The notes below the pieces were generated by a model. The model was not told where the DNA came from and ran no database searches. It saw only the letters and a program-made list of their open reading frames with translations. 60,504 nt of DNA from a virus. Taxonomy: Duplodnaviria > Caudoviricetes. Positions 10,901 to 52,131 of the stretch are shown one piece after another. Where the stretch lies: positions 1 to 60,504 of IMG/VR virus record IMGVR_UViG_3300023210_000036. One strand, given 5' to 3'. Position 1 is the first letter of the stretch; each line of letters opens with the position of its first letter. The translations under genes were made by a program, and so were the position numbers.

Positions 10901-13900
10901 GGACCTACCTCTACTCCTCCTTGTGCTACAGGTAAAGTATCTGCATCTGGTAAAGTCCCAGTATCTGATATAGTGTTTAACATTTGTAAAATGGACTCCT
11001 CAGAATAAAGTCTTTTTAAGTCTCTAAAAGCTTTAACTCTTGAAGTTGGCATATCATCATATGTAATTTCTTTATTAAATACATCAACCCCATTAACCTT
11101 CATATCTTTTCTTATTTCATTAAGTCTAGCTCTAACTTCAGTAGGGTCGGAATAATAGTTTCTAGTCCCTTCTTCTGGTGTATCACCATAACTTTCCCAA
11201 AAACTAAGAGTTTTTCCTATATCAAGAGTTGGATCAATAAGATTACCCATAAGGTCTATATCATTATTTGGTATTAGTCTTCCTTCAGGATCCATTCCTC
11301 TTGCATAAAATTGAACTATATCTGTTAAGAGAAAGTTATCAGCAGGTCTATCAATACTATGTGAGATTTCATGATCATACAAAGTAGGCGCTCTCCCCCC
11401 AGATTTTGGTTTTACATAAATCTTTCCTGTATCAGATTCTGAATATCCTGCTATACCGCTAAGGGCCTTTTCAGAATAATATTGATTGGGGTCATTAGAT
11501 ATATATAATGGTGCATCTTGTAATTCGTTAAAATTACTAATTCTCCCACGTTGTACATCTCCAGCTCTATTCCACCATTCACTACCCCCACTATTATTTA
11601 ACATCTCTAAATATCTTGGGCTATTCATCCATTTACCTGCAAAATCTTTTGCTGAATCAAGATTCTTTTGATTGGCATTTTGCAATGCCTCATCCTCATG
11701 CATTATTACATTTCCATCTAGCCCGCTTACATAATCTAGACCTTTACCTATTTGTGCTTGTGGTAACTGTTCACCACCATCACGTTCATTTGCTAATACA
11801 GCCCCTACACCTGCTGCTGGAAACATCCATGCATTTTCTAATATGGGTCTTACAGCATCTTTCCATCCTTTACTTCCCGGTTTTAATATATTTCCAGCAT
11901 CATCTCCTAAGTTTCTAAAAAGATCATCAACACCAAATTTATTTTGACCATTAATAACATCATCTGAAAATTTAGATAATAAATCATCAGTTACTTTTCC
12001 ATAATTATATCCATATTTTGAAACTAGATTTTCAATAGCCATAATATGCCTTGCATTTTGTTCCATTGGATCAGATAAATATTCAAATCTGTTTCCATAA
12101 CCAGACATTGGTGTATTTTTTAATTCAGAGTTTATGGGCGTTGTCATATGCCGTTGCCCTTTATGAAATCCGCTGCTTATGTCTTCCATTGAAACAGCTT
12201 TCTGTTTTAACGCTTTTTGAATTGATTCTATACTTTCACCTTTAGCAAGTTTGCCTTTTGCTATATCATACATTGCATCAAGAAGTTCTGTATTACTACT
12301 TCCAAACTTTGTTTGAAATGCATGTAAAACTTCATGATCAAAAACGTCAAGATACGTATCAAGGTTAGGGCTATATCCAACTCCTGATCCGTCTGGTGTT
12401 TTTATTGTAATATTTTTTCCACTGTATATACCTTGAGTTTCTAGATCTTTATTAAATTTTACAACTATTTGATCAAAGGCATTTTCCATAGATTTTACAT
12501 CATCATTTATATATTTTGCAATATCTGCATCTGATGCGTTTTTAAATTTATCTGTTTCTCTTAACTGTGTACCTCTTCTTTTAATATATTCATCGCTATT
12601 TACCCATGCTTTTCTTTTTGTCACTACATCATCAAGTTGGGATCTTGTTAAATTTCCGGTTTCATTACGCCCCATCCTATAAGTTGCATTTTCTAAACCT
12701 TCAGTTGTAAATTCAGATACAGAAGGATTAAAGTAATCATCTACGTACTTTGCCCCGTCATCAATATACTTTGCTATATCATCAACATACTTTGGTAGTT
12801 TTTTAACTCCTGCCTTTAAGAATGCTCCTAGCTGAGCTTCTGGTAAACTTCCTCCATATTTAAGACCAAAACCTGCTGCTTCTCCTTCATCTGTTACGCG
12901 GATTTTAGTTTTAGGATTGCCAAAAAAATTTGTTTTATCTACTTGTGTAGCTAAAAGATTATCTTCCTTGTCATATATATTAAATTCTTGCTTTAATCTT
13001 TCTCTGTTACCGTTATTTACTGATTTAATATTCATATTAGAATACCCATCCTCATTAGTAACCGTGGTATCTTCCAAAAAAGTTTGCTTTAACTTTTCAT
13101 TACCATTGTTCTTTTTCTTAGAATTTACTTCATAAGAGCTAGTGCTATCAACATGAGAATCAGGAAGAACCCCTCCTCTTGGTGAAATTAGCCCTCCCGG
13201 ATACTGTGAGGAGAATGGTATTTCAGGTTGGTCAATGAGTGTTGCGGGTCTAGGAATTAAAGGTTGTATTGTTGTATTACCCTGGGCACCCGTATAATCA
13301 TAAGAGCCATTTGCAGGTATACCTGACCCATCAAACCCATATTGATCAATGGACACATTGGGTATAGTAGTTCCGTTAGGCCCAGCGGGTACTTTAGTGT
13401 TTCCAATTCCTGAACCATAAAAATCCCCAGTTATAGACGCTTCATCCCCCGGTTCTGTTCTTTCTCTATTTTGTACATCAGTTTCATTTTTTGTTTGTGA
13501 TTTTTTCCACCTCTCAGCCTCAATCTTAAAATCCGCAAGACTACCTTTGTTACCTGCAGCCAACCAGTTTTCGTAACCCACCTTCCAGTTTACACCACGC
13601 TTAGAATATTCAACATCACGGTTACCAGTTCTTTCGTCAATTATTGTTGTGGCACCTGTAGTTGGATTAACACTTCTGCTTATCTCAGCCCAATCTCCGT
13701 ATATAAATGGGTTTGCAGAAGTTTGATTTAACTCAAAACCCTCTTGAGCCCTTGGTAATGAACCACCTCGTCTCAGTTTCTTTTTCCAAGATCCTTCACC
13801 AAACTTAATAGCTGCTTCTTTATTAGTTCCAAAGTCTATTACCTCACCTCTTTTCAATGCTTCTTGATATACAGGTTCCCACGGTTCTTCTAAAGAGATT

Positions 13901-14349
13901 GACATATCTACCCATGTTCCATCTTCATTTTGAAATAATGTAGGAAAAGAAAACCAATTACCTTTACCGTCTGTTTCTGTTCTCATTATATGAGTAGACT
14001 CCCCAACTACATTACCTTCTTTATCATAATTTAATCTAACTCCCTTTCGTTTAGGGACTTCCCGACCTGCTTGAGCCATTGGTACTTCAAATACTTGATC
14101 ACCAGGAAATTGATAGTTATTACCCGGAGTCATTAATTTTCTATTACCTAAGTTATCAGTTCCTATTACCGGAAAGTCTACACCCTCCATGGTAATATTA
14201 CCTGAGTTAATAATATTGTATGGATTATTTACATCTGGACTATCTGCCTTGTACCCCTCTAAGGAATAAAAATCAGAAAAGTTTGTTATATATTCATTTG
14301 GGCCGCCCTTTAGACCAATGCTTTTTTTGTTATTTGAGTAATTTGCCAT
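7924..14349 (-). CDS. Multidomain virion cargo polyprotein: two zincin-like domains, lysozyme-like domains, two peptidoglycan-binding domains, CHAP/NlpC-like domain (2141 aa)
   Basis: HEVLH and HEISH, each followed by YxSDPxExxAR; AFHESG...GRGVFQFE; two PG-binding repeats (DVQLMQGDLLERGY...ADGIYGQRT; EVKAIQTKLIEKGF...IDGKFGERT); CAAGMC...VGDIVGI...THSG; GVETGGG...SYNQG. Confidence 0.7.
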   Translation of the reverse strand: MANYSNNKKSIGLKGGPNEYITNFSDFYSLEGYKADSPDVNNPYNIINSGNITMEGVDFPVIGTDNLGNRKLMTPGNNYQFPGDQVFEVPMAQAGREVPKRKGVRLNYDKEGNVVGESTHIMRTETDGKGNWFSFPTLFQNEDGTWVDMSISLEEPWEPVYQEALKRGEVIDFGTNKEAAIKFGEGSWKKKLRRGGSLPRAQEGFELNQTSANPFIYGDWAEISRSVNPTTGATTIIDERTGNRDVEYSKRGVNWKVGYENWLAAGNKGSLADFKIEAERWKKSQTKNETDVQNRERTEPGDEASITGDFYGSGIGNTKVPAGPNGTTIPNVSIDQYGFDGSGIPANGSYDYTGAQGNTTIQPLIPRPATLIDQPEIPFSSQYPGGLISPRGGVLPDSHVDSTSSYEVNSKKKNNGNEKLKQTFLEDTTVTNEDGYSNMNIKSVNNGNRERLKQEFNIYDKEDNLLATQVDKTNFFGNPKTKIRVTDEGEAAGFGLKYGGSLPEAQLGAFLKAGVKKLPKYVDDIAKYIDDGAKYVDDYFNPSVSEFTTEGLENATYRMGRNETGNLTRSQLDDVVTKRKAWVNSDEYIKRRGTQLRETDKFKNASDADIAKYINDDVKSMENAFDQIVVKFNKDLETQGIYSGKNITIKTPDGSGVGYSPNLDTYLDVFDHEVLHAFQTKFGSSNTELLDAMYDIAKGKLAKGESIESIQKALKQKAVSMEDISSGFHKGQRHMTTPINSELKNTPMSGYGNRFEYLSDPMEQNARHIMAIENLVSKYGYNYGKVTDDLLSKFSDDVINGQNKFGVDDLFRNLGDDAGNILKPGSKGWKDAVRPILENAWMFPAAGVGAVLANERDGGEQLPQAQIGKGLDYVSGLDGNVIMHEDEALQNANQKNLDSAKDFAGKWMNSPRYLEMLNNSGGSEWWNRAGDVQRGRISNFNELQDAPLYISNDPNQYYSEKALSGIAGYSESDTGKIYVKPKSGGRAPTLYDHEISHSIDRPADNFLLTDIVQFYARGMDPEGRLIPNNDIDLMGNLIDPTLDIGKTLSFWESYGDTPEEGTRNYYSDPTEVRARLNEIRKDMKVNGVDVFNKEITYDDMPTSRVKAFRDLKRLYSEESILQMLNTISDTGTLPDADTLPVAQGGVEVGPKEAPEGYKWNGKSLVPNDWSEFHDEVDKSLLDFNNILAYVSESRGGTEEFWGNTADTVAFHESGAQQRMDRLAKQISQNEDGSLFDGPGRGVFQFEGPSLETAQTRYKNIARAKGFTLDPEIINATSADLLPMDKQYTLFFANLIESDATLSDYSDGKMEQVDLWLQGHKNIEKPGDRASFQESVDEAKKKGITGGYKSFKKRYGGSLPKAQDGSEFYPFDGGYESGNDPNPYPFPYGVPVDPDTDNDADIVEEEVDITQLSPLDINLLQPPIISIQDGTNLNSPILTDHLGRDINDLSPEDLEAFHQELNFNYEQDQRDQELIDQEYIDPNQIAGFVTNANQRGQNYERGFEDFTERSAEDVQLMQGDLLERGYDIGPTGADGIYGQRTHDAYSSMIADAGLEESAISRYDKKYNPETYTEVKAIQTKLIEKGFLPEITEAGKSNIDGKFGERTKMALLDYNTSKAEEEEDVEGLIFDTIPTTLEDERCAAGMCQILELNDIETEAIGVKYKDAWDLLESMKHVGNSAVQFNIYDDSLFDNVDENTSISELKNLTAKAKRKHQTTASNYKVGDIVGIYWPGSDHHLETLNSETHNTHSGFVSSIDENGTPIITHNVGGTIRNVPYNEVATAWISRPNENIKLTATYAEQIDPDDIALSQTDSALIDNFENKIERSLTDEERKIVSNIMQRANYNSKHIPEILNSSIDQEWLNAAIFGITGVETGGGINAPRTRDDLSVTRALAHMWENTKDADISLGVGKTKYNSLDNFARNYFEINSPADLADDNKAVDAVSYMLVKNYELFKNYAQQYPTLGLAEEDVRNMTLLSYNQGVSKLLTTGRNDENTRNSEEELAALRELYEGSMADISSTNYSRIPGGESLYDAALVLGYETPSEKYISKTNRYITEVYGGSDEYNDMLLATNITNSNTPPVLAKGGEYGVFKNYVNGDYNNTPRDKSSEKVFDKLNRRHYKEAKALGMSPSNYIMSHLVG

Positions 14350-17300
14350 TATCTAAGGGATGTAAGTAATTTAGTATTATTTAATCTTAATAACATCTTT
14401 CTATTATCAGAATCCATTTTACGCAATATTACATTAGTGAAGTAGTGTCTAAACTTTTTATGTTGTAATGGGGATTTTAAATAGTTTAAATTAATAAAGT
14501 TTAAATTTTTAATATACCCATTAGGTTCAGTATCCCATATAGGTTGCTCAACATTGGTAAATTCTCCTCTATCATTTGTAATATCCCAAAATTGATTAAA
14601 TCTATATTTCTGTTCTACTTTAGAACATAAGATATTAATATTGTTTCCATTAATTATAGGATAGGTTAATTCTAAAATGGGGTTATTAAATGGAGTGGGA
14701 GTTAATTGCAATAACCCTGATACCTGCTCATTATTGTAGATGACCGATTGATCAAAATTAAAGTTTAGATCTTCCCATTTATCATCACCGCACAAAAACC
14801 CAGGATCATTTTTATATACATATGCTTCCATCTGATATTCCATACTTCGTACAGTGTTGACTGTTTGCCCTGTATTAGCCACTAATTCTATTTCCCATGG
14901 ATATTGTATATTATAAAAATTAGCATAACTATCACATCTAGCATTATGTCTCCATAGTGTACCCGCATTATAGTTGGCGGGCACAGAATCATAATAAAAA
15001 TAATTGCATAATGGAGGATCAGGATTAACCCAATTAGGGTCCCCTATAGCAAATAATCCTGGTGCAGAATCTGGGCAAGTTCCAGTTACTGTTGTTGTTG
15101 AATTAGGAATAGTAGATTCAGGACAACCGCATATAACTTGTCTACATATGGGGGGTCTTTCATATTTGCATGGACCATCCTCATCGGTGTATAAATTTGT
15201 TAATTGGTTTGGGTATACTAATGTATAACCAGTGGGACACGCACATGCAATGGGTTCAGAACAGACACCACTTGCTATTTCTTCTGCTGCAGCATCTATT
15301 CCAGCGCTTACGTTAGCACTCATTGTAAGCTGGTATGGACCCGGTGTTCCTGTACTTGTATCATATGTAGTGTTAGAAATATTATTCATTACTACAGCAC
15401 TTGGGGGAGTGCTGGATGTTGCACCACAATATATTGCATATATTTCTTGTTTACGCTGATCAACAGCTATATTAGCAGGTGAACTTTGTAAATTATTTTC
15501 AGCCCACTCACCTGTATTTTGAGCTTGGGGTGTACCTGCTGTTGCATTTGGAGTTTGAAATTTATTTACATTGTTTTCTGCTAGTCCATTTGTTCCATCT
15601 GTTACAACAATTAAAATTTGCTTAAAAGATGCATTTTCTTGTCTAGTTGGATATTGAGATGCAAAACTTGAATTTGCTTTATCATTTAATTGTGCTAAAC
15701 CACCTTGCCCTGATGTTGGACTTGCTGTACCAATTGCCGCCACCACACTAGTGGTGCCACCAGCCCATGCGCCAGTATACCAATTGCATGCCTCTTCTGG
15801 TAAAACTGTATTAGTCATTGATTTATTACCAGGTTGCATCCATCTTACACCACTACCAGACCACCCTTGAAATCCAACTTGCATAGTTCCTGCAGACATT
15901 GCCCCACTAATTGATGTATTATTTAAAAATACATGTAACCAACGTAATTGAGCTGATGCACGGGTTACCATTGGTGCTGCTATAGAACCAGTAACACAAT
16001 TAATAGTCGGAATACCTGTACTTCCTGACCAATCCATTGCAATTACAATATCTAATTTGCAATTTTCTCCTCCACCAGTTATTGTAGAAACTATATCACT
16101 TACATCTATGGTTGCGTTTGCTGTTGTATTTACGGCTTGTTCACATAATCCAGTATCAGGATTAAAATTATATCCCGGAGGACACAGAGGTGTATCCGTA
16201 AGTATAGTCTTAGTAGTAAAAAAGTGATTTATACTTGGTATAGAAAATTCAGGATGCCAATCATGAAAAGATATCCATGCTTTAGCTTTTGGATCATAAC
16301 TAATAGTCCAAGATGCGTCATCAAAATAAATAGGGTCTCCTAAAATTATAGGAATCTTTCCATGAGCTGTCTCTAACATAAAGCCTGTTAAAGCACCGTA
16401 TGTTATCATATCAATCCATTCACTCTTTACTCTATAATCCTTCTTCATAAAGTAGGCAATGTCATCATTCGGATCATATATAGATTGACATCCCACACCT
16501 ACTACCGCATTATCTGATAATTTAGAATATTCTAATTCGGGGTACTGCTTAATTAATTGTGATGGTAGATACTTATTAAACCACCACTTCATTCCTTTAT
16601 TAGATATAGGATCTAAACCTTGACCAGCATAATGGAAAATCTTTCCTTGTGCTTGCGAGATATAAAATATTCCCATTGGTGTATTCATAACTCCTCTTAA
16701 ACTTTCACATGAACCATATTCATTTGAAAGATCTGAGTTAGTTATATTCTGAAAGGGTTGGCTAAACAATCCTCCATCACCTATAGTTATTTTAGTATCT
16801 AATCCTGTTTTAAGAGTATCTAAACCCTGAAACATTTGTGGAGATAAGTACGGGAAAAATACTATTGCTCCACTTTTATTAATAGGTTTAATAATACTTA
16901 CTTTATTTTTAAAGTCTTTATAATTAAAATTTAAGAAAACTCTCCAGTAATCTTTTTTAGATTCATGTTGTGCCTGTAGCGAATATATAAGTCTTTTAGG
17001 ACGACTGACATAACAGTTGGCTGCTACATAAGGATCATAATATCTGGGCTGTACTTGTCCAAATGAAGTTATTTGACTTGTTAATTTAGAAGGACTTAAT
17101 GATTCATCATACTTATAAAAGTTATCTATTTTTTCTATTTGAGCATGAAATAATTCTGTTAAATCATTATACTCATATATATTATATATTCTTTTTGCTG
17201 CTGTATCTTCCCAATCTCTATGAGCTAAATTTATTTCTGACTCAACAAAGAAATCTAAAATACCATTTGAATGACTATACATATACGCATATCTCATTGC

Positions 17301-20300
17301 AAATGCAGGATTAGGATCACTACTATTAAATACAGTACCTATAGAAAAGCCTCCGCAACTTTGACTACCCCTATCTAAATAAAATAAATCATTGGGAAAC
17401 ATGGAGTTTAATGCTCCTGTACTTAGAATACCAAACGAAGCAATTTTAGTAGCTAATTCAGTCATATCAAATCTTAGAGAATTTAACCAAAATCTTGGAT
17501 AGGGTATATTTACATGATTTGAATAGTCATAAGTAAACTCATCTGGCTGACCCAGTAAATACTGAGAAAAAATAGGCATTATTACTTTTTCAGTATACCT
17601 ATTAATAAATATATCTCCTGCAAAAATTGCACCCGATGAATTCATGAGTTCATCTGGTTTAGTAGGATCTAAATAATTTACACAACCCCTCATAGGTATT
17701 TGTTTTATACCATCAAGTTGTCCGTATTGATTATCAAAATTAAATTTAAGTGCTCCATAATAAGCAGAAATAGGTTGTTTTTTAGATATAGAAGGGTCTA
17801 ATAGATAATTGGCAGAATAAGGAGTTGTTGTTCCATTTGCATTTACATGACCTCCTACAGTAAATCTTGATGTATCTTGTTGAGAAGGTTCATCAATTGG
17901 AGTATCTAATGATACAGCAACTGTACTTGGTCTAAATAAATTATTAATTTTATATTTTCCGCTATCAAAAGATTGAAAAGATTGGCCTATATAGTTTGAG
18001 TCACGATTTTTAATTCTCCATAATCCTGTGTTTCTTTTCCTAAAATCAGTAAACTGACCAGTTGAATTATATTTTAGTACAAAATCTCTCTTCTCAATTA
18101 AATTATATAATAAATCTATTATCTCATTACCTCCAATTGCAATATTTGTTGATGTAGATAATATACTTAAACCAGCTTTTAATAGGGTGGGTAATTGTGA
18201 AAAGCTTGTTGTTTGATTATTAACAATTGTAAATTCACCAGAATGTGTAGCTGGAGAAGCAACATATCCACTGTTTGCAATACCCGAATAATATCCGTCT
18301 AAAAGCCCTAGAGCAAGACCACCCCCCCATAAATCTGCTAAAGCGGCAGCATTATCCGCATTATCATATATATTTATAGCTGCTTGCATAGTTGCTGCTC
18401 CTGCAGCTGCTCCTGCAGCATCTGATACATAATTAGCACCCACAGCTCCGGCACTCGCCCCTATTCCAGCAACAAAAGAGCCAAAGTACCAATCACTTGC
18501 TCCTTTTATTCCATAGCCACCTGAAGTTTGAGTACTTCCCGATTCACCCCTAACTTGTTTTATAGCATAACCTACACCAATAGCTGCAGCAATTATAGCA
18601 GAACCAGATCTTAATAATTTAAATTGAGGGTGATCTTCAGATGCTTTAAATGATCCAGTTTGATATCCGCTTAAATCACCATAAATTCTTGTTTCATAAG
18701 CATTTAGAAATGGTTTAGTAAACATTAAATCAGGAGAAGAAAAAGTAAATGCTTCTTTTGAATAACCCGTTTGTACTCCATCAACAATACCAAAAAATCC
18801 TAAAGGTTTAAAGTTATTTATAGATTGAGCTAAATTATTACATCCTTCTGTTCTATTTAATTCAACATCATCATCATCATCAAATGTTCCGTCATGAAAA
18901 TACATGTCAGGTCTTAAATCATTATAGGGATAGTTGGGATATAATCCTTGCACTGATCCTCCTATTAAATTTTCTGAATCTGGAACAGTATATTTTCTCA
19001 TATTTCTAAATAGCCCTTTTGCTAAAATAGATTTTGCACCACCTCTTGATCCTCTTAAGATTTCATACCCAACAACATTAGTGATATATGTTCCATCGTT
19101 ATTTGTTGGTTGACCTATATTTGTAAATTCAACACCTAGAAGATTTATTGAATCCCCACTGGTAGTACTTATATGTAATGCTGAATTGGGTCCAAAACCA
19201 CCTCCATCTTCTGCAGGCATCTTATGGTGTCTAATAGGTTTACCACATAAATCCCCCCATATATCAGGTCTATTAATAGGATATTTTTCTGTAGATTCCC
19301 AATAACCCATCTTTCCTTTTGCAATTATAGAACTTCCATCAGGTTGTGTAAGGTTTGGCTCTGAGGTTATTACTCCAGTATTATATACTTTAAATAATGG
19401 GTCTCCACCAGGCTCTATAACATTTGCTCCCCAAATAATTTCATTCTCCATTGTCATATTACCATTATCTTCTTGGAAAAGCTCTGCTTCTCTGCCGGGT
19501 ATATGATATGAACTTGATCTTTCTCCTGTATTATATATCCACCTTATGAAAAAGGCGTATTGTTCATCTCTTAAAAACCCCAACTTATTTCCTCCTAAGT
19601 GATAGTATTCTGAAGATATTTGGTTAACAACGAAATTTGTTTTAATATTATTTGCAATAGGCTGATAATTAAAATCAAACTGTTCTACAGGTCCTTGTCT
19701 AAGAAGCCAATCATTAACAACATACATTGCTTCTGATTTTTCATATGCAGGACTTCTCTTGGGGATTACTTTTAAATCTACTGATACTAATGAATCATCT
19801 AAATAATCAATGTTAATGTCTTTACGTTGAGTACTGTATAACCCCACACGTTTAGCATATGTTTGCCCTTGATTCCTTACTAGTAGAGCAAGCTCAAAAT
19901 TTTCAAAATTTAAATCTAAATTTGAAATAGATATATTTAATGAGTTTTTTGTTCCTTCATGACTCCATAAAGTTTGTACATTTGAGATACCTATGTAGTC
20001 TGTTACCCGTTGTTCATTTTCTGTATATGCAATAAAGGCTTGATAAGAACCATTCATTAACATACCACCATCAATTGATTTAGTTAACTCAACACAAGGT
20101 GTGTCCACTAAAGGAGCCAATCTTATTTTTTCACAATTTAATTGTAATGGTTCAAAGTCACTATAGACTATGCAAGGATCTCCATCAGGTGAACTTATAT
20201 ATTGTATATATGGTATATCATCTATATTTAAACTTCTAGAAGGATTATTGGAATCATCCCAGTATACTTGCCATGTACAATCAAAGTTTTCTTTTGCAGC

Positions 20301-20675
20301 ACCAGTAATAAGAAATTCTTTATTAAACGCTAAACATGTGTCATTAACTAAAGTAGTATACTTACACTCACTATCATCAAACCTTCCTATTTCTGAACTA
20401 AAATTATCAGTGGAAAATATTATCCACTCATCACCATATCTATGTATGGCACCAATAACTGTGTAGGGTATAACCCCGCATTGTAAATTAGCAGGTTCAT
20501 TACCTATTACACCCATATCACCATCATTGGAATTATTGGCAGCATTACGTGCATGCCACCAACTTTGATTTGGTTCCATAGCTTGCGTAATATCCTTATT
20601 CATTCCTTTTATGAACGAATTAGTAACTACAGAGGTTGTGCCCTTTTGGTTATTTGGTGCTTTTTGTTTTGCCAT
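14349..20675 (-). CDS. Tail stabilisation / muzzle protein with inserted VWA domain (2108 aa)
   Basis: Starts NSFIKGMNKD, has WTISYDPKAKAWISFHDWHP near the C-terminus, typical of crAss-like stabilisation proteins; follows the tail tube/ring genes; VWA MIDAS-like LDIVIAMDWSGS...ILIVVTDG. Confidence 0.7.
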   Translation of the reverse strand: MAKQKAPNNQKGTTSVVTNSFIKGMNKDITQAMEPNQSWWHARNAANNSNDGDMGVIGNEPANLQCGVIPYTVIGAIHRYGDEWIIFSTDNFSSEIGRFDDSECKYTTLVNDTCLAFNKEFLITGAAKENFDCTWQVYWDDSNNPSRSLNIDDIPYIQYISSPDGDPCIVYSDFEPLQLNCEKIRLAPLVDTPCVELTKSIDGGMLMNGSYQAFIAYTENEQRVTDYIGISNVQTLWSHEGTKNSLNISISNLDLNFENFELALLVRNQGQTYAKRVGLYSTQRKDINIDYLDDSLVSVDLKVIPKRSPAYEKSEAMYVVNDWLLRQGPVEQFDFNYQPIANNIKTNFVVNQISSEYYHLGGNKLGFLRDEQYAFFIRWIYNTGERSSSYHIPGREAELFQEDNGNMTMENEIIWGANVIEPGGDPLFKVYNTGVITSEPNLTQPDGSSIIAKGKMGYWESTEKYPINRPDIWGDLCGKPIRHHKMPAEDGGGFGPNSALHISTTSGDSINLLGVEFTNIGQPTNNDGTYITNVVGYEILRGSRGGAKSILAKGLFRNMRKYTVPDSENLIGGSVQGLYPNYPYNDLRPDMYFHDGTFDDDDDVELNRTEGCNNLAQSINNFKPLGFFGIVDGVQTGYSKEAFTFSSPDLMFTKPFLNAYETRIYGDLSGYQTGSFKASEDHPQFKLLRSGSAIIAAAIGVGYAIKQVRGESGSTQTSGGYGIKGASDWYFGSFVAGIGASAGAVGANYVSDAAGAAAGAATMQAAINIYDNADNAAALADLWGGGLALGLLDGYYSGIANSGYVASPATHSGEFTIVNNQTTSFSQLPTLLKAGLSILSTSTNIAIGGNEIIDLLYNLIEKRDFVLKYNSTGQFTDFRKRNTGLWRIKNRDSNYIGQSFQSFDSGKYKINNLFRPSTVAVSLDTPIDEPSQQDTSRFTVGGHVNANGTTTPYSANYLLDPSISKKQPISAYYGALKFNFDNQYGQLDGIKQIPMRGCVNYLDPTKPDELMNSSGAIFAGDIFINRYTEKVIMPIFSQYLLGQPDEFTYDYSNHVNIPYPRFWLNSLRFDMTELATKIASFGILSTGALNSMFPNDLFYLDRGSQSCGGFSIGTVFNSSDPNPAFAMRYAYMYSHSNGILDFFVESEINLAHRDWEDTAAKRIYNIYEYNDLTELFHAQIEKIDNFYKYDESLSPSKLTSQITSFGQVQPRYYDPYVAANCYVSRPKRLIYSLQAQHESKKDYWRVFLNFNYKDFKNKVSIIKPINKSGAIVFFPYLSPQMFQGLDTLKTGLDTKITIGDGGLFSQPFQNITNSDLSNEYGSCESLRGVMNTPMGIFYISQAQGKIFHYAGQGLDPISNKGMKWWFNKYLPSQLIKQYPELEYSKLSDNAVVGVGCQSIYDPNDDIAYFMKKDYRVKSEWIDMITYGALTGFMLETAHGKIPIILGDPIYFDDASWTISYDPKAKAWISFHDWHPEFSIPSINHFFTTKTILTDTPLCPPGYNFNPDTGLCEQAVNTTANATIDVSDIVSTITGGGENCKLDIVIAMDWSGSTGIPTINCVTGSIAAPMVTRASAQLRWLHVFLNNTSISGAMSAGTMQVGFQGWSGSGVRWMQPGNKSMTNTVLPEEACNWYTGAWAGGTTSVVAAIGTASPTSGQGGLAQLNDKANSSFASQYPTRQENASFKQILIVVTDGTNGLAENNVNKFQTPNATAGTPQAQNTGEWAENNLQSSPANIAVDQRKQEIYAIYCGATSSTPPSAVVMNNISNTTYDTSTGTPGPYQLTMSANVSAGIDAAAEEIASGVCSEPIACACPTGYTLVYPNQLTNLYTDEDGPCKYERPPICRQVICGCPESTIPNSTTTVTGTCPDSAPGLFAIGDPNWVNPDPPLCNYFYYDSVPANYNAGTLWRHNARCDSYANFYNIQYPWEIELVANTGQTVNTVRSMEYQMEAYVYKNDPGFLCGDDKWEDLNFNFDQSVIYNNEQVSGLLQLTPTPFNNPILELTYPIINGNNINILCSKVEQKYRFNQFWDITNDRGEFTNVEQPIWDTEPNGYIKNLNFINLNYLKSPLQHKKFRHYFTNVILRKMDSDNRKMLLRLNNTKLLTSLR

Positions 20676-20692: not shown

Positions 20693-21664
20693 TTAAACTG
20701 TTGCACAAGTAGAGCCAGGGGCTGCACTTGTAGATGTGTTTGTAGTTGTAGATACAGTTGGTCCCGATACTAATCTAGGATTTATAGGTGCATGGCTTAA
20801 AAACATATTATAGTAATTATGATATTGAGCTCTTCTATTAACTTCCCATAATTTTCTCATTTCTGCAAAGTCAGGAGTATTAACAAAACTTAAAGCATTA
20901 TTTCTAGCAGCTCTAAGCCTGGTCTCTACTAAATTCATTTGTTGAGAAACATTTTCTCCTTGCCAAATCATATTTTCTAAAATTCTTTGCTTAATGGCAT
21001 ACTCATAATACTCATTACAATAAGGTTGATCCAAGACTAATAAATCACCACTAGCTGATTCCATAGCACCCTGATAACTTAAATATACTTTTCCTGTTCT
21101 AAAAGTGGTTATTAAAAACCCGTCTACTATTTCAGCAATATCAGGAGCTTGTGCTCCTAGAGAAGGACAAAAACATGTTTTACTATTTACATCTTGAATG
21201 CGTAGTTGCATAAAAGTACTAAATGTTCTAAATTGATTTGGTCCAATTCTTTGGACTATTTGATAGCTGTTTTTATCCTCACATGATTTTATTACACATA
21301 CATCTTTGCATGCTACACCATCTACACAAGGAGCAACTTCACCTGGTGCAGGAACATAGGGGACATCATTAAATGTTTCTACATGTGTGCCTGAAGGCAT
21401 AGATGCGTTAATGTGATATTCACCACACAAAAATGCATAATTGAGAAATGCAAAATCCATGGGTAGTTGCCCTCTACCATGTTCAACATCAATGACAACT
21501 TCTTTAGTCCTGTGTATCTTTAAACCAAGATCATAATTTACTCTAGTTGCAACTTTGATAAGTTGTTGGGGCTCAATCATACCTTCTAAAGCATATGTAG
21601 AAAAATCAATAGATACGTCTTCCATTAATTGAGTGAACGTCCTGTATTTTTGTGATACTCCCAT
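20693..21664 (-). CDS. Tail tubular / ring protein
   Basis: Immediately upstream of the stabilisation gene; GKVYLSYQG...YYEYAIKQRILE pattern; synteny with crAss-like tail tube genes. Confidence 0.6.
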   Translation of the reverse strand: MGVSQKYRTFTQLMEDVSIDFSTYALEGMIEPQQLIKVATRVNYDLGLKIHRTKEVVIDVEHGRGQLPMDFAFLNYAFLCGEYHINASMPSGTHVETFNDVPYVPAPGEVAPCVDGVACKDVCVIKSCEDKNSYQIVQRIGPNQFRTFSTFMQLRIQDVNSKTCFCPSLGAQAPDIAEIVDGFLITTFRTGKVYLSYQGAMESASGDLLVLDQPYCNEYYEYAIKQRILENMIWQGENVSQQMNLVETRLRAARNNALSFVNTPDFAEMRKLWEVNRRAQYHNYYNMFLSHAPINPRLVSGPTVSTTTNTSTSAAPGSTCATV

Positions 21665-22335
21665 TATCTATGTATATTTATTTTGTTATCAGAATCTTCT
21701 GCAGGAACCTTCATTGTATTCATCATTGTATTGATGACTTGACTTTCTATTTCTGCAAATAATGCCTCCGGTATATATATTGGTTGGTTGTATCTAGGAG
21801 TGCAGTCATCTTCGGTATCACAATTCCATTTTGTAATATCTGAATTAAATACTCCTTCAAGTTTTAATGCATCCCATTCTATATTAGGTGAGTATATATA
21901 TCCATCTAACCACCAAAAATATCTTGTTGTATTGTACTTAAATGACGTTGTTTTAGTCATAGAGGTATATGTACCCGGTTGAGTAGCTTGAAGCTCCTGA
22001 GAGCCGTCTATGGAGCTTACAGTGCGTATAAGCGGTCCCCAATATCCTTCTATCATAGATGGCAACCTAACTTTACTTCTTTTTATGGTGCACCCACTGC
22101 TTATTCCTGAACAGTGCGCCTCTACTTTATCTACATCTACTAATTCAATATACGGTAGTGCTTTCCAGACAGAGTTAAATTTCATTAACTTATTAGCATA
22201 ATCTTGTCTGCGCATTAATACTTGGGCAAACTTTTCTATTAAGCTATATATATATCTGTCTGTAACATATGCATCTTGGACTTCTGCTTTAACTTGCCCT
22301 CTGATTCTTGATATTGCTTCTGCTATTGTTGACAT
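21664..22335 (-). CDS. Tail ring/adaptor protein
   Basis: MSTIAEAISRIR...TDRYIY start; overlaps the next gene by one base; synteny. Confidence 0.5.
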   Translation of the reverse strand: MSTIAEAISRIRGQVKAEVQDAYVTDRYIYSLIEKFAQVLMRRQDYANKLMKFNSVWKALPYIELVDVDKVEAHCSGISSGCTIKRSKVRLPSMIEGYWGPLIRTVSSIDGSQELQATQPGTYTSMTKTTSFKYNTTRYFWWLDGYIYSPNIEWDALKLEGVFNSDITKWNCDTEDDCTPRYNQPIYIPEALFAEIESQVINTMMNTMKVPAEDSDNKINIHR

Positions 22336-22340
22336 GTTCT

Positions 22341-22907
22341 TTATGTTTCAAATTCATTATAATTTTTTAAAGCTTCTTTTGTTTGTTCAATATTTGAATC
22401 ATATAAATGAGCAACTCTATATTTATTTTTCATAACCACATACTTTGTCCAGTTAGTTGGATATGTTTTAGCTACCGCTCTTTTAAATTCTCTACATGCA
22501 ACAAATCTCCATAGCTCTCTATTTTTATATCTATATCTTGTAGACCAGTTAGTGTAAAAGATTTTTCCTAAATTTCCATCAGTTTCCCAATTCTTATTTT
22601 GTAAAATTTTACCATGTTCATGGGATAAAGCATAATTCGGATTAATGGTTTTAGAAGAAGCACATGTTCCAATAAATAAATATCCTAATGAATCAGGGAG
22701 CTCTACCCCATCTCTGTGATTAATAACTGCATTCCATAGTTTTACATTATATAGTTTAATTATTTTTTTTAATTTATTATTATCAATATTGGAATATGAT
22801 GGCTTCTTATCTTTAAATTCTTTTATTGTTTCTTTATTTAATATACCCAATCTTTTTTCTCTATATCTAGAAGCGTTGAGATCGGGTTTTTTAAAATTGT
22901 TAATCAT
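22341..22907 (-). CDS. IHF/HU-like basic DNA-binding protein
   Basis: Very basic; DGVELPDSLGYLFI resembles the IHF beta-arm; IHF-like genes sit beside the ring genes in crAss-like phages. Confidence 0.5.
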   Translation of the reverse strand: MINNFKKPDLNASRYREKRLGILNKETIKEFKDKKPSYSNIDNNKLKKIIKLYNVKLWNAVINHRDGVELPDSLGYLFIGTCASSKTINPNYALSHEHGKILQNKNWETDGNLGKIFYTNWSTRYRYKNRELWRFVACREFKRAVAKTYPTNWTKYVVMKNKYRVAHLYDSNIEQTKEALKNYNEFET

Positions 22908-22965
22908 ATAGTTATATTTATAATTTACAAAAAAAACCCCACTTAATGAAATTTAATTGGTGCCA

Positions 22966-24189
22966 TTATTGTGCTTGGTATGTTAATTCACAAATATTCC
23001 CTATTAGTGGATCTTGTAACTCTAGTTTACCCGACCTTCTATTTCCAACAAATTTATTATGATAATGGTAATAATCTGTTTTTCCTAAACTGGGCAATGT
23101 CTTATGAATAAACCCTGTTGTTTCAGCAGTAGTCATATATTCTATTTTCCTTTCTGTATGGAAATGACCTGTAAATAAAGTTCTGTTAGTGGTATCACCC
23201 CATTGTTTGGGATATTCTGTTGCATAGACTAATGGTGTATTTTTACTTGGTTTATCACCATGCTCGAATGCATTGAAGTTATTGTGCCATATGTGAACTT
23301 TTCTTTCCTCATATTTTATATCCCAAGTAATTTCATCACTTTCTATAGACTTAGATAATGCATGGGCTAAATGATATGAGGATAATCTATCATGATTTCC
23401 GGGCACATATACCACTACTAATTTGTTACAAAATGCTTTAATATAATTAATTGCCCAATGCATTGCATCAAAGGCTTGTGTATATGCCTCTGTGGAGCTC
23501 ATACAGTTATCCAATGGTGTTCCTGCAGTAGTTGTACCATCAAAGGTGTCCATGTTGATTAGATCGCCTCCTACAACAAAATATAATTTTTCAATATAAT
23601 GTGATGTAGCTGCTCTTTGTAATAAATTGATAATTGTATCTTCAAAATCTTTATCAATTGTTTCATTACCTTCTTTACCAAAATGGATATCCTGCAAAGA
23701 CATTACTCCACAAACTTTTTGCCCACTTTTAATTTTAGATATATCTACTTTAGGTATTTTGTAAGTCTTGGGAGTCCAAGACTCTAATAATTCCTCAAGA
23801 TTACTTATTGAAATATCTTTCTTTCTTGATATTAATGCTGAAACTCTCCAATGGTCCCCCATTTGTTTATTCCAATACTGAGATAACTTCCAAATGGTAG
23901 TATCAATATTAAGTAAAGATATAATTTCTTCTGGAGACTTTGGTTCATGAGAAAATGTTCCGGATACTTTACCCTCTCCTTTTTCTAAATCAATAGCTTC
24001 AGCAATCTGTGCATTTTTAGATGCACCAAAAAAGAATTTATTTTTTTGTCTAACTTTTCTTTTTTCTGAAAGAACCTCTTGCTTGATTTCTAAATATTTA
24101 GATTCTGTAATTCCTAATTTAGCAGAACAGTATCTAGCATTCTTTTTCCATTTTAATGTTTCTGCAATTTGTTTCTTAATGTTGGCCAT
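22966..24189 (-). CDS. Calcineurin-like metallophosphoesterase with N-terminal HTH-like region
   Basis: All five motifs in order: DIHFG, GGDLIN, PGNHD, HGD, GHFH. Confidence 0.85.
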   Translation of the reverse strand: MANIKKQIAETLKWKKNARYCSAKLGITESKYLEIKQEVLSEKRKVRQKNKFFFGASKNAQIAEAIDLEKGEGKVSGTFSHEPKSPEEIISLLNIDTTIWKLSQYWNKQMGDHWRVSALISRKKDISISNLEELLESWTPKTYKIPKVDISKIKSGQKVCGVMSLQDIHFGKEGNETIDKDFEDTIINLLQRAATSHYIEKLYFVVGGDLINMDTFDGTTTAGTPLDNCMSSTEAYTQAFDAMHWAINYIKAFCNKLVVVYVPGNHDRLSSYHLAHALSKSIESDEITWDIKYEERKVHIWHNNFNAFEHGDKPSKNTPLVYATEYPKQWGDTTNRTLFTGHFHTERKIEYMTTAETTGFIHKTLPSLGKTDYYHYHNKFVGNRRSGKLELQDPLIGNICELTYQAQ

Positions 24190-24243
24190 AATAAAAAATT
24201 GTTAATTATCCAAAGATATATGAAAAGGTTTATTAAAACAAAA

Positions 24244-24267
24244 AGAGACTGAGTTACCCCAGTCTCT
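24244..24267 (-). terminator. Rho-independent terminator
   Basis: AGAGACTG/CAGTCTCT stem followed by a U-tract on the minus strand, after the 186-aa gene. Confidence 0.75.
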
Positions 24268-24321
24268 TCCAACTTGTGTGGTAGAAAACCAACAAACCAC
24301 CACTCTGTTGTTTTTATTATA

Positions 24322-24882
24322 CTATGTAGCTAAAGTAGAAAATAATATTTCAATTGGTTTACATGAGGATGAATTCGCTGAATCCACAACCTTTACTTTA
24401 TATGCTGTGCTGGCAGATAAATTTGTTATTGTATAGTTATTTATCGTAGTTACAATGGGCACAGTATTTTGAAGTACCCAGGCTCCAGGAGCCACTTGAG
24501 TATTAATATATATATTTATACCAGCACTAGAACTCCATATACCATTCCAAAGAACGGATGCTGTAGAGGCTGTAATAACACCCGCATAAACATTGTATGG
24601 ATCATGTTGTAGATCATTTGATGTACACGCACCCAAACCATTACTTAATATCATAGCAAATTTTTGGATAATTGAATCCAATCGCTCTCCTTTGGTTATT
24701 TGCAATAATGCACTTGGATCTCCAATTTGAAATGTAGTACCGCAATAACTCACACATTCTGCACATTGGATATCATCACATCTTTCACTACCCACACTGC
24801 AATCAGTATAGGTGCATGCATTAGTTAGAGCTGTATCAGAACAACTACACGTTACACTACATTTTGTACAATTACATGCCAT
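24322..24882 (-). CDS. Cys-rich protein with C-terminal FN3-like domain (virion decoration/fibre)
   Basis: Cys-rich N-terminus; YTITNLSASTAYKVKV is an FN3 signature. Confidence 0.6.
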   Translation of the reverse strand: MACNCTKCSVTCSCSDTALTNACTYTDCSVGSERCDDIQCAECVSYCGTTFQIGDPSALLQITKGERLDSIIQKFAMILSNGLGACTSNDLQHDPYNVYAGVITASTASVLWNGIWSSSAGINIYINTQVAPGAWVLQNTVPIVTTINNYTITNLSASTAYKVKVVDSANSSSCKPIEILFSTLAT

Positions 24883-24903
24883 TTTTATATCTTTTTATTT
24901 TTA

Positions 24904-27120
24904 TTAAGGGGTTGGGCCGCAGGCATTTGTTATTTGAGAAATAACTGATGTTGTATCATAATTTACAGTATAAGTACCACCAGTAGCTGTAGCCAACGTT
25001 CTCCAAGGATAGGTTGTTGTTCCTCCACTCGGTGTATATGGTTTATCAACTCCTTGACCTAATATAAAGACTTTAATTCCATTGGAAGCGCATGTTATAG
25101 CTAATGAATTTAGTCTAGTTACATCTGTAGCAGTAAACGCATCATCATCACCGCTTGGTAAATCATCAGTATAGATCAATACGTACTTTGCCACACCCGT
25201 TCTAAATGCTCCAAGTAATTGGTTAGATTCTACAATTAATCCAAGAGCCATATCTGTTGGTTCTGGGAAACCAGATCCCGCTCCTAAAGGCCAACCAGCT
25301 GTTGGAGAACCTGTATTAAGTTTAGCTAATTGTGTTTCAAAAGATGTTTGGTTATTAGTTTGGAACATCTCTACTGCAGTAATAAACTGATAATCAGATG
25401 ATCCTGTATTTATAATTCTTTGTGCTGATGGTAATGCTAAGTAATCAGTTGATGTAACATATGTCGGTGTAGATGAAGAGCTCTCATCAGCTAAGGCTAA
25501 TCCTAATCTATAGTCATTAGTTCCTGATTGAGTTATAATTTCAGCAATAATATCAGATATCCCAGTTTTAACACCGTTAACAACAGTACCCATACTAAAT
25601 GTATAGTCTAATAAAAATACTACATCTAGCCCAGAATTACATGCAGCTGCAGCAGTAGTAGTAGCAAACGTTGTTTGATTTGGACATATTTTTGTAGCAC
25701 CGTTCATAACAACAGTTATTCTAATGTTATATGTAGTATTAGGAGTTAATCCAGTAAATACATGTGATGGAGTTGCTCCAGGATTGCTTATTGTGGTTGT
25801 ATCAACTAATACACCTGTTAATGCATTAAGTATATCAATTGTATATGTTGCTGTTAAACCAAGTAAATTATTAAAGCCAACAGTTGCCGAAGTAGAAGTT
25901 AGTGATGTCACATTAACATTTGCTGGACAAGGTAATAAACCGTTGATAACTGTTGATTGATTTTCATTACATCTATTTTCACTTGTACTATCTGTTACAC
26001 AAAATGCAACTAAAACAGTTAAGTTTTGTTGAGTATTTAATGTATTCACTGCTAATGTAACTCCAGATGCATTATTCTGAAGTGAACTAACACTTACCGT
26101 ACTAGTTACTGAAAGTCCAGCAGCATCGGTTATTGTGATTACTGTTGATCCTGCACAATCATTAAATGATGCGGGAATACTACTTGTTTGAAAGTTAAAA
26201 GTTACACTTGCTATTTCTCCATTTGTATCCAGATTATTACTTGTACTATATCCAAATATTACTGCATCACATCCAGAAGGACAGCAGTTTAATTGTATGG
26301 AGGCTATAGCCGTATACATATCATCTATAACTACCCATGCATTTTGTACAGATTGTGCAAGATTAACAGGAGAACTATTCCAACCACCAATACTACCATA
26401 GTCACTTCCTGGATTAGTTAATTGAGAAGTTGCTGAAACAATAAAGCTTTGTTGAATAGTCAACAAGATTGCTGCAGGTAAACCTACTGCTGTCTCTAAT
26501 GTACAGAACCGAGCCTCTAAAGCAAGTAGTAATACAGATACATTTGTTAGGACAGCGGGCATTACACAAGTGGGTATAACTTGTGTTTCAACTACAGCAC
26601 CAGAACAAGGTAAAACGCATGCTTCTAAAATTACTAATCTTCCGGTAATATTTGTAAGAGCCGAGTTAAGAGTATTTATGCTTGATAGGTTAGTACACAC
26701 TTGATTAGCAATAAGTGTGGCAAATAAATCTAAACGTAACTCTGTTACAGGATTTCCACTAGCATCGTTGTACTGCAAACATGCAGGTAATGTCATTATA
26801 GGCAATTCAGTTTGTGGTGCAACTGAATTTGAGTTTGCACATATCTGAACAACCATGGATTGTAAGACAGGTACTAAAGTAGTTGGTGTTAATCCGGCTA
26901 TATTTAAACAAGTTAAATCTAGACCTGTAAGATTTGGATTAGCAGTAACACCACTAGTTATTAATGTGCATACTTCAGTAGCTAATTTATATACTACCTC
27001 TGTTACAGTATCGCCTGAACATAGATCTATACATGCAATATCGGGACCTTGCCATACAACACAATTTGATGATATATTATCACATCCATTTGTTGATATG
27101 CTTGAACTAGTTGGAATCAT
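24904..27120 (-). CDS. Cys-rich fibre-like protein with FN3 and C-terminal VWA domain (738 aa)
   Basis: SSNCVVWQGPDIAC N-terminus; FTGLTPNTTYNIRI (FN3); LDVVFLLDYTFSMG...PEPTD...YVLIYTDD...NGIKVF...LATATGG (VWA). Confidence 0.75.
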   Translation of the reverse strand: MIPTSSSISTNGCDNISSNCVVWQGPDIACIDLCSGDTVTEVVYKLATEVCTLITSGVTANPNLTGLDLTCLNIAGLTPTTLVPVLQSMVVQICANSNSVAPQTELPIMTLPACLQYNDASGNPVTELRLDLFATLIANQVCTNLSSINTLNSALTNITGRLVILEACVLPCSGAVVETQVIPTCVMPAVLTNVSVLLLALEARFCTLETAVGLPAAILLTIQQSFIVSATSQLTNPGSDYGSIGGWNSSPVNLAQSVQNAWVVIDDMYTAIASIQLNCCPSGCDAVIFGYSTSNNLDTNGEIASVTFNFQTSSIPASFNDCAGSTVITITDAAGLSVTSTVSVSSLQNNASGVTLAVNTLNTQQNLTVLVAFCVTDSTSENRCNENQSTVINGLLPCPANVNVTSLTSTSATVGFNNLLGLTATYTIDILNALTGVLVDTTTISNPGATPSHVFTGLTPNTTYNIRITVVMNGATKICPNQTTFATTTAAAACNSGLDVVFLLDYTFSMGTVVNGVKTGISDIIAEIITQSGTNDYRLGLALADESSSSTPTYVTSTDYLALPSAQRIINTGSSDYQFITAVEMFQTNNQTSFETQLAKLNTGSPTAGWPLGAGSGFPEPTDMALGLIVESNQLLGAFRTGVAKYVLIYTDDLPSGDDDAFTATDVTRLNSLAITCASNGIKVFILGQGVDKPYTPSGGTTTYPWRTLATATGGTYTVNYDTTSVISQITNACGPTP

Positions 27121-27180
27121 AAATATTTTTTTTACTATAATGCAATGTGATCTTACACTCTATACATTTATAATATACAA

Positions 27181-27224
27181 AAAATTTTAAAACCAAACAA
27201 GAAATGTCTGACTTTAAAATTTTT
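27181..27224 (-). terminator. Long hairpin, probable terminator
   Basis: Minus-strand RNA AAAAUUUUAAAGUCAGACA-UUUCU-UGUUUGGUUUUAAAAUUUU pairs fully with G-U wobbles, after the 91-aa gene. Confidence 0.55.
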
Positions 27225-39260: not shown

Positions 39261-39270
39261 TTTTTTGGTT

Positions 39271-39846
39271 TTAAATTATATATGGGTTGGAACCTCCACA
39301 ATTTCCTGAAGGACAACTTATTTTATTTAATCTTTGTTTAGCATATCTATAAAGCTGCATTCCTTTAGCAGACGATTGGCAATATTCTACATTTGCAACA
39401 GCTGCATCAATCATGGTTTTAATAAAACTCATTTCACTTAATACATCTTGTCTTTGAGAATCTGGTTGACATGCTTGCACATCTATATCACATAATACTT
39501 GATAATACTCTGTAAGCAAAAGTGTGACTCTTAAATGATTATACTCTACAAATACTTTTTCGTTAGGAGACACACTATATCTAATAATATATATTCCATC
39601 TGTAAGGTTTTGCTGTTCTGTTCCACACAGCTCTGTTTGAGTACCTATTACACATGCATTTAAGCACATATCAAAATCTTTCTCAACTTTGGTTAGAACT
39701 GGAACAGAGTAACCAGGGAGTGTTATTAATAACTCTTCGCAGTCAACGGCAAGTTCAGGAGCATATTGACTAGTATCTTTAATACATAAAAGTCCACAGT
39801 TTGACACAGTGGGTATTTCTAAACTTAATATATGCTTATCTGCCAT
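39271..39846 (-). CDS. Putative tail hub protein
   Basis: LTDGIYIIRYSVSP motif; follows the auxiliary capsid gene. Confidence 0.45.
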   Translation of the reverse strand: MADKHILSLEIPTVSNCGLLCIKDTSQYAPELAVDCEELLITLPGYSVPVLTKVEKDFDMCLNACVIGTQTELCGTEQQNLTDGIYIIRYSVSPNEKVFVEYNHLRVTLLLTEYYQVLCDIDVQACQPDSQRQDVLSEMSFIKTMIDAAVANVEYCQSSAKGMQLYRYAKQRLNKISCPSGNCGGSNPYII

Positions 39847-43319: not shown

Positions 43320-43433
43320 TATTATTTTGGTTTTAAAATTAGTAAATGTTTATAATCAAAGGTACATAAAATATGTACAGTTTATTTATTAATAATTTCT
43401 AAAGTAAGGTTTTACCCTTACTAAAGTTTTTGA

Positions 43434-46681: not shown

Positions 46682-46816
46682 AATATTGTTGGTTTTATTA
46701 TTTAGTACGACTGCTTATATATACAATATAATAAAAGTTTACGTATGATACAACATATTAAACTTATAATATTTTACTATAATGCAATGTTTTTAGCAGT
46801 ATATAGCTAACGCCAA

Positions 46817-52049: not shown

Positions 52050-52131
52050 CTTTTTTTGGTTTTATTTTGTTTAAAAATACTGGTTCATCCCAATAGCAAA
52101 AATGCCAGGAATCTTTTTTATTATTACTCAT
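51991..52131 (-). CDS. Possible small protein (46 aa)
   Basis: ATG overlaps the upstream stop (TAATG); MSNNKKDSWHFCYWDEPVFLNK...; 3' end overlaps groES. Confidence 0.35.
   Translation of the reverse strand: MSNNKKDSWHFCYWDEPVFLNKIKPKKDETTSNTSGKKITDQTEKS

Follow-up and report, generated by a model that had tools for sequence, protein, structure and literature searches.

Introduction

Pairing over the region of an mRNA that is contacted by the ribosome normally blocks the initiation of translation. In Firmicutes, the small RNAs RNAIII, RsaE and RoxS possess C-rich hairpin loops, which pair with Shine-Dalgarno sequences. Phages encode antisense RNAs as well, including the c4 RNA of P1/P7, the sar RNA of P22 and the OOP RNA of lambda, which pair near the ribosome-binding sites of the phage's own mRNAs; the c4 RNA is processed from a longer transcript and uses loop sequences to do so. 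The RegA of phage T4 represents a protein repressor, recognising a short start-region motif of several phage mRNAs. CpxQ and SroC are small RNAs derived from 3' UTRs and sharing the terminator of the mRNA, for which processing or an internal promoter has been documented.

The systems closest to the locus addressed here are GibS and FopS of Bacteroides thetaiotaomicron. They are short RNAs with a Rho-independent terminator and a conserved single-stranded seed; by pairing around the start codon, the seed represses Bacteroidota mRNAs that are A-rich and lack a Shine-Dalgarno sequence (PMC7366714, PMC11697453). One FopS member is described as deriving from a 3' end, and FopS has been deposited in Rfam (PMC11697453). 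For B. thetaiotaomicron, twenty-one UTR-derived small RNA candidates have been reported (PMC7366714).

This work addresses a hairpin in the 3' UTR of a phage structural gene, located in a window of 60,504 nucleotides, the whole stretch of DNA that was analysed (virus record IMGVR_UViG_3300023210_000036). If its loop pairs with start regions of the phage's own mRNAs, as proposed below, the hairpin would work most like GibS and FopS, sharing with their published descriptions the start-region seed pairing, the terminator at the 3' end and the 3'-derived origin. In those descriptions, however, the seed is linear and located at the 5' end (R1), whereas the phage element would use a hairpin loop; GibS and FopS are chromosomal, multicopy in the case of FopS, and serve host metabolism, whereas the phage element is single-copy and is proposed to act on the phage's own genes. 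The hairpin gave neither an Rfam nor a sequence match that would place it in the GibS/FopS family, its architecture differs, and it belongs to none of the families considered.

The Firmicute RNAs are alike in setting a short conserved loop motif against a ribosome-binding signal common to several mRNAs, but there a C-rich loop meets a G-rich Shine-Dalgarno sequence, whereas the U/G loop of the phage would meet an A/C-rich leader, and the RNAs are unrelated. The c4, sar and OOP RNAs operate in temperate immunity and lysogeny circuits, mostly on overlapping or adjacent targets, unlike the present hairpin, which lies among the structural genes of a crAss-like phage of lytic type and has its proposed target 22 kb away. 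T4 RegA is similar in that one factor serves several starts, although this factor is a protein and the one proposed here is an RNA. In contrast to CpxQ and SroC, no conserved promoter is evident upstream of the phage hairpin. In the literature searched at title and abstract level, we found no small RNA of a crAss-like phage, which is not proof of absence.

The Phage and Its Gene Context

The genes of the window make up the structural arm of a crAss-like phage. The Crassvirales-type assignment is based on hallmark virion genes, with matches to muzzle, portal and major head protein. A 2108-aa protein matches the Pfam family crAss_MUZ (crassvirus muzzle protein) at its N-terminus with E = 1e-24, and PHROG recognises the portal, the major head protein, GroES and an Mre11/SbcD-like exonuclease. 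Nearly all genes of the window are on the minus strand. Two giant genes span 7924-20675 (-), encoding the 2108-aa product and a 2141-aa product, and the latter contains a peptidoglycan-binding domain near residue 1571-1610. No tRNA or tmRNA was found by ARAGORN.

The viral-contig collection contains a large set of family relatives of 93-118 kb, one of which is complete with terminal repeats. Among cultured phages, the window has no DNA-similarity match, tblastn with the 438-aa protein described below has none either, and even the closest capsid and exonuclease proteins share only 25-28% identity. For both proteins, the nearest is the cyanobacterial Leptolyngbya phage Lbo-JY46 (capsid protein of 43704-45323, 27.9% identity and 99% coverage; exonuclease of 22966-24189, 25.5% identity), and Cellulophaga phages rank after it. 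With a cyanobacterial phage as the nearest cultured relative and Cellulophaga phages next, a Bacteroidota-type host phylum is tentative for the clade, being suggested by leader and promoter-like features only.

Three genes matter for what follows. The 186-aa gene, whose transcript would carry the hairpin, encodes a protein with a weak 'major tail protein' likeness (PHROG phrog_4971, E = 6.5e-07) and a Pfam fn3 match below the cut-off (E = 0.0057). Its N-terminal half is Cys-rich, with 8 invariant Cys in an alignment of 9 diverse homologues, and is followed by an FN3-like half. The exonuclease gene, with its start at 24189, is the next gene 3' of the hairpin. The 438-aa gene (45365-46681) sits between the portal and capsid genes and encodes a highly charged product with no Pfam or PHROG match. 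An earlier note, made by reading the DNA without database searches, had named this gene a scaffold gene and another one groES. The second name is borne out by a PHROG match of E = 7.7e-19; the first is unproven, and the 438-aa gene is called scaffold-like here for its position and the charge of its product only.

Contigs of four marine metatranscriptome libraries, from two studies, match the window exactly, for example at 22376-22746 and 26766-27151. These exact matches, within 20700-27200, indicate that the phage or its DNA was present in those RNA libraries. The contigs leave 24172-24822 uncovered and are silent on the hairpin either way.

Structure of the Hairpin and Its Terminator

Between the stop codon of the 186-aa gene and the start of the exonuclease gene, the minus strand contains an A-rich spacer, the hairpin at 24303-24278, eight bases, and then a G+C-rich hairpin with a U tract. 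The order on this strand is UAG UAUAAUAAAAACAACAGA GUGGUGG UUUGUUGGUUUU CUACCAC ACAAGUUGG, followed by the terminator. The features of the locus are as follows.

24322..24882, minus strand: 186-aa gene, from the list of open reading frames, with its stop TAG at 24324-24322; its 3' UTR carries the hairpin
24297..24303, minus strand: 5' arm of the hairpin stem, GUGGUGG, from the fold and from covariation in 53-55 distinct relatives
24285..24296, minus strand: 12-nt loop UUUGUUGGUUUU, the proposed antisense seed, from the fold; near-invariant in the family and exact complement of 46686-46696
24278..24284, minus strand: 3' arm of the hairpin stem, CUACCAC, from the fold and from covariation
24235..24270, minus strand: intrinsic terminator, G+C-rich hairpin at about 24269-24242 and U tract, from the fold and the terminator scan

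The earlier note had placed this hairpin on the minus strand just before the terminator and had read it as a 3'-UTR-derived RNA. Its coordinates and sequences are right, and the fold and the terminator scan support an RNA-level element within the 3' UTR of the 186-aa gene, with the intrinsic terminator following closely. The note had drawn a stem of 5 bp with a 13-nt loop; this register can form, but a stem of 7 bp, 24303-24297 with 24284-24278, and a loop of 12 nt are better supported by both the minimum-energy fold and the comparative data. The 101-nt region folds with -30.3 kcal/mol (z = -3.54), and none of 200 shuffles folds as well. By accessibility prediction, opening the loop costs only 0.1 kcal/mol.

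The terminator possesses a stem of 13 pairs at 24270-24241 and then a T-rich tail, as expected of an intrinsic terminator, and its arms covary in the relatives, with 4/8 stem pairs altered on both sides. The terminator scan gave 1 site, against 0.5 expected. A scan for sigma-70-type promoters, from which an independent small RNA could start, gave 4 sites where 4.2 were expected, which is chance level, and no conserved promoter motif was found upstream of the hairpin in the relatives. Rfam gave 0 matches over the whole window at gathering thresholds; within 24150-24400, at E up to 10, the best score was 19.2 bits against a threshold of 40 bits.

Two extensions of the structure were considered and dropped. 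The minimum-energy fold adds an outer helix, CAAC/GUUG, whose 4 pairs show zero double changes, and the flanks that form it are missing in L155, L076 and the L540-type clade; it is not a conserved structure. A pseudoknot between the 5' flank CAACA and UGUUG of the loop is sterically possible and was given up for the loss of the flank in the same clades.

The stretch from the terminator U tract to the exonuclease gene, 24211-24242 (-), contains TTTG, then 20 nt, then TATCTTTG, which we take to fit the Bacteroidota -33/-7 promoter consensus. The relatives retain TA(t/a)(c/a)TTTA at this place.

Conservation and Covariation of the Hairpin

The hairpin is found at the syntenic place in about 95 related viral contigs. 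With the 186-aa protein as query (40-85% identical), it follows right after the stop codon in 77 of 78 loci; at the 78th (L158), the stretch examined after the stop does not show it, and the same contig has the hairpin upstream of the exonuclease gene (L076). The exonuclease query gave the loop core in 79/79 testable loci. An alignment query brought in 17 more contigs, as well as the variants G013, G014 and G015, and gave the hairpin in 18/18 further loci. Presence of the loop at the syntenic position, a check put forward in the earlier note, is observed in every relative examined. In the main clade, the 12 letters of the loop are invariant and the flanking intergenic DNA varies.

Covariation was assessed in two alignments. 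In a plain MAFFT alignment of 55 sequences, which is independent of any structure model, the stem is 99% paired and 3 of its 7 pairs are changed on both sides. A model-fitted alignment of 53 distinct sequences, which leans towards the structure, has 97.8% of its cells paired and 5 of the 7 pairs double-changed, a result that 0 of 500 shuffles reach. The closing G-C pair has become A-U, with both sides changed, in 8 of the 53 distinct relatives, and G-U pairs are present at two stem positions in 23/53 and 30/53. Frequent G-U pairs would be A-C mismatches on the other strand, and thus selection acts on the sense-strand RNA. The covariance model has one strong match in the window, at 67.7 bits with the next best at 14, and one copy in each of 5 near-complete genomes. 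The hairpin is a genuine structured RNA motif, previously uncatalogued and outside Rfam. The 15-mer GTTTGTTGGTTTTCT, searched for in bacterial and archaeal genomes, gave more than 120 matches scattered over unrelated phyla, which were read as chance.

Protein-bound hairpins classically combine an invariant loop with a covarying stem. The hairpin could be a cis RNA element, bound by a protein or by RNA polymerase, that serves 3'-end stability or processing or modulates the terminator, its complementarity to leaders being incidental. We consider this rather unlikely, yet it is the main rival. The hairpin directly adjoins the intrinsic terminator, 8 nt downstream, in all relatives, as such an element might; but no candidate binding protein was identified, and the 3' flank GUUG and 5' flank CAAC, which could form a larger binding site, are not kept in the L540-type clade.

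The Leader Motif and Candidate Target Sites

The exact complement of the loop, AAAACCAACAA, has a single occurrence in the window apart from the loop locus itself (24285-24295 +), namely at 46686-46696(-), before the 438-aa gene. The core AAAACCAA has 8 minus-strand copies, and 4 of these are located just before gene starts (43327-43334, 39265-39272, 46689-46696 and 52056-52063). All of these sites, the 11-nt complement as well as the 8-mers before the 338-aa, 61-aa and groES genes, had been pointed out in the earlier note and are found as described. The candidate target sites are as follows.

46686..46696, minus strand: AAAACCAACAA, at -15..-5 of the 438-aa gene; best predicted target, with 11 bp to the loop
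43327..43334, minus strand: AAAACCAA, weaker 8-bp candidate site at -15..-8 of the 338-aa gene; -6.0 kcal/mol
39265..39272, minus strand: AAAACCAA, candidate site at -12..-5 of the 61-aa gene, in a 10-nt intergenic gap
52056..52063, minus strand: AAAACCAA, weaker and less conserved candidate site at -14..-7 of the GroES gene; -6.7 kcal/mol

The enrichment of AAAACCAA before starts, another check named in the earlier note, is clear: 4/46 leaders contain it, the shuffle mean is 0.20, and 0 of 20000 shuffles reach 4. Among the relatives, the complementary motif AAAACCAAC is kept gene by gene. For this survey, the window proteins were mapped onto 80 loci around the 438-aa gene, and AAACCAA was sought in the last 30 leader bases. 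It is present in 77/77 leaders of the 438-aa gene, 42/42 of the 338-aa gene, 22/28 of the 61-aa gene and 20/58 of GroES, and in essentially none of the leaders of other genes. In the complete relative, for which gene calls are rough, as they are in the relatives generally, 6 of 98 calls are preceded by leaders with 8 nt or more of complementarity to the loop, among them that of the ribonucleotide reductase large subunit.

The leaders of the window agree with what the earlier note states for Bacteroidota mRNAs: 0 of 46 have a Shine-Dalgarno tetramer, and they are A-rich at -3 and at -11..-14. Such A-rich, Shine-Dalgarno-less leaders are the pattern reported for Bacteroidetes (PMC7366714). Since the leaders are A-rich at -11..-14, the motif overlaps the ribosome-contact region. 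This overlap with a general A-rich start signal counts for a protein-bound hairpin, as conservation of the leader motif then needs no RNA partner. The leaders are also conserved further 5' than the stretch that matches the loop (ATTATTAA...), which makes it probable that the motif has its own role, be it in translation or as a promoter component.

The sites allow a reading at the level of DNA as well, in which AAAACCAAC, in either orientation, is a duplex site for a phage regulator, or in which the hairpin forms in single-stranded DNA and serves replication, packaging or as a virion-polymerase promoter. In favour of this, the same 11-mer is found on opposite strands at 24285-24295 and 46686-46696, and the loop site is roughly 70-85 bp upstream of the promoter-like motif for the exonuclease gene. 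However, the stem arms covary instead of conserving their letters, which a duplex site does not require, and their abundant G-U pairs fit one strand as RNA only. The hairpin is single-copy, unlike a repeated promoter or terminator type. The motif of the 61-aa gene, moreover, is inside a 10-nt gap after the preceding stop codon, which leaves no room for a promoter, and so it must lie and act in the mRNA. We regard a DNA-level element as highly improbable.

Predicted Loop and Leader Pairing Within and Across Genomes

In 22/22 genomes, which are all those in which both the loop and the 438-aa leader could be read, the genome's own loop and own 438-aa leader can form 8-13 contiguous pairs. When accessibility is included, the 438-aa start region ranks first of 41 in predicted pairing energy, at -10.9 kcal/mol; the runner-up has -7.9. 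That each of the 22 genomes keeps 8 or more contiguous pairs, with this target ranked first, argues against an incidental complementarity of a protein-bound element. The 8-nt sites have weak predicted pairing, at -6 to -7 kcal/mol, and in a closed loop the pairing of all 11-12 nt is sterically demanding.

The earlier note had cautioned that a match of 8-11 nt in AT-rich DNA could be chance. A composition control was performed with all 220 U9G3 loops of 12 nt: 8/220 find an 11-nt leader match, 143/220 reach 8 nt, and 41/220 have at least 4 leaders with 8-nt matches. U/G loops readily meet A/C-rich leaders, and therefore the match in a single genome, at about p = 0.04, is only modestly unusual. 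That composition-matched loops so often match leaders is also what a protein-bound cis element would lead one to expect.

Loops that depart from the main-clade sequence offer a further comparison. In genomes G001 and G002 the loop has lost its 3' UU and ends in ...GGUUAC or ...GGUUCU; these are sister lineages, and this is therefore one event. Their 438-aa leaders keep AAAACC in 2/2 genomes, without compensation, and the pairing falls to 8 bp, which favours the protein-bound element. Their 338-aa leaders, in turn, have CCAAC, found in G001 and G002 only and absent in 24/24 main-clade leaders and 8 other distant genomes, where the leader has CCAAA or CCAAU; CCAAC shifts the 8-bp helix in the direction of the loop letters that did not change.

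The G001 orthologue of the 61-aa gene has GUAACCAAUAAA, giving 12 bp with G001's own variant loop, and GT before AACCAA is present in 0/108 leader sites of the canonical genomes. In the control for this case, the 'AC' ending of the G001 loop takes rank 2 of 16 possible dinucleotides. G001 also retains a different leader that matches the canonical loop, and not the G001 loop, perfectly over 12 nt.

In G013 the loop has an inserted U (GUUUGG), and the 438-aa leader of the same genome, AAAACCAAAUA, is among only 2/41 unique leaders that give 11 bp with it; in a control with all leaders of G013, 187/364 U11G3 arrangements pair as well with some leader as the real loop does, and this version of the test has no weight. 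The G015 loop contains an additional U on its 5' side, and there the match reaches 12-13 pairs through an extension in the leader. Pattern scans and distant-homologue queries gave no further loop variants in the viral collection.

The signs of loop/leader co-evolution in three variant genomes are suggestive, individually weak and not decisive. Covariation of loop and leader motif, which the earlier note had named as a check, is in sum a set of weak and mixed signals, with the uncompensated 438-aa leaders of G001 and G002 on one side and three hints that favour pairing over a protein-bound element on the other.

Proposed Mechanism and Its Meaning

The simplest account of these observations is pairing, because an invariant, unpaired loop is accompanied by an equally conserved complement at -15..-5 of a start. 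We propose a 3'-UTR-borne antisense RNA that would occlude start regions rich in A and devoid of Shine-Dalgarno sequences, above all the one of the scaffold-like 438-aa gene. This is the reading that we favour tentatively; we hold it to be quite possible and would stop short of calling it probable. The RNA would be produced at the end of the transcript of the 186-aa structural gene, in its 3' UTR, and may be released as an RNA of ~70-90 nt composed of hairpin and terminator. Its 7-bp stem would present the 12-nt loop UUUGUUGGUUUU, invariant and predicted to be fully single-stranded, so that it could pair in trans with (A)AAACCAAC(AA), a motif rich in A and C. Such pairing would cover the ribosome-contact region of an unstructured A-rich leader, and translation would be repressed as the structural transcript accumulates. 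Repression would be the expected outcome, since these phage mRNAs lack Shine-Dalgarno sequences and rely on an open A-rich leader.

The same pairing could have the opposite effect, if the loop stabilises, activates or tethers its target mRNAs. This reading shares the evidence for pairing, and the genes with the motif include some that may be needed in bulk, such as the scaffold-like gene and GroES. The site, however, spans -15..-5, the A-rich ribosome-contact region, and the published descriptions of GibS and FopS are of repression by such pairing (PMC7366714, PMC11697453). The ribosome-recruiting adaptor suggested in the earlier note is without support: two Bacteroidota 16S rRNAs have only 6-7 nt in common with the loop or its complement, a weak negative, which gives no hint of ribosome tethering. 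Mimicry of rRNA and leader-rRNA pairing were rejected on the same comparison, there being no meaningful likeness or complementarity. We consider an activating role decidedly unlikely.

A broader form of the antisense proposal, quite unlikely in our estimate, is that AAAACCAA(C) at about -15..-8 is the dedicated start signal of a small regulon and that the hairpin loop is its anti-signal, turning the regulon off (or on) with virion assembly. Its members would be the scaffold-like, 338-aa and 61-aa genes and GroES and, in the complete relative, the ribonucleotide reductase large subunit. If true, this would be an RNA counterpart of T4 RegA, carried along by a late structural mRNA, and the first circuit of its kind in Bacteroidota-type, Shine-Dalgarno-less translation and in a crAss-like phage.

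If the pairing with the leaders is real, a large uncultivated marine clade of crAss-like phages encodes an antisense regulator of its own late genes. It would also be a natural case of RNA-controlled translation in hosts that dispense with Shine-Dalgarno sequences, where a U/G-rich loop set against an A/C-rich leader replaces the usual C-rich loop against a G-rich ribosome-binding site. Together, the loop and leader motifs represent a compact hypothesis that is directly testable. Whatever its function, the hairpin is a new structured RNA motif and could serve to mark this phage clade.

Additional Observations on Upstream Sequences

Other conserved sequences accompany the leader motif. A block, TTATTATATTGTATATATAAG, precedes the AAAACCAAC motif of the 438-aa gene by ~20 nt (window about 46700-46750 (-); L159-L238), and TTGTATATTATATATATA-like strings are found upstream of the starts at 39846 and 56105; the block is possibly a middle or late promoter of the phage. 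Ahead of the 338-aa gene, relatives (L439-L443, L557-L561) share a palindromic hairpin, GTACATAATTATGTAC, with TTTTGA between it and the leader; this is likely to be a terminator that overlaps with a -33-like element.

Some relatives possess the leader motif in tandem, as two or three copies (L167, in the leader of its 438-aa homologue, and also L162, L180 and L243), for example AACCAAttattAAAACCAActattAAAACCAAC. In the 101-aa gene, AAAACCAAC is found within the coding sequence (+13..+21), at 56086-56093 (-), and the G013 orthologue has the motif in its leader instead. Finally, an unrelated viral contig of 238 kb (L467) contains, on its minus strand near 2765, a tandem unit atgtaGTTTGTTGGTT that holds a loop-like string.
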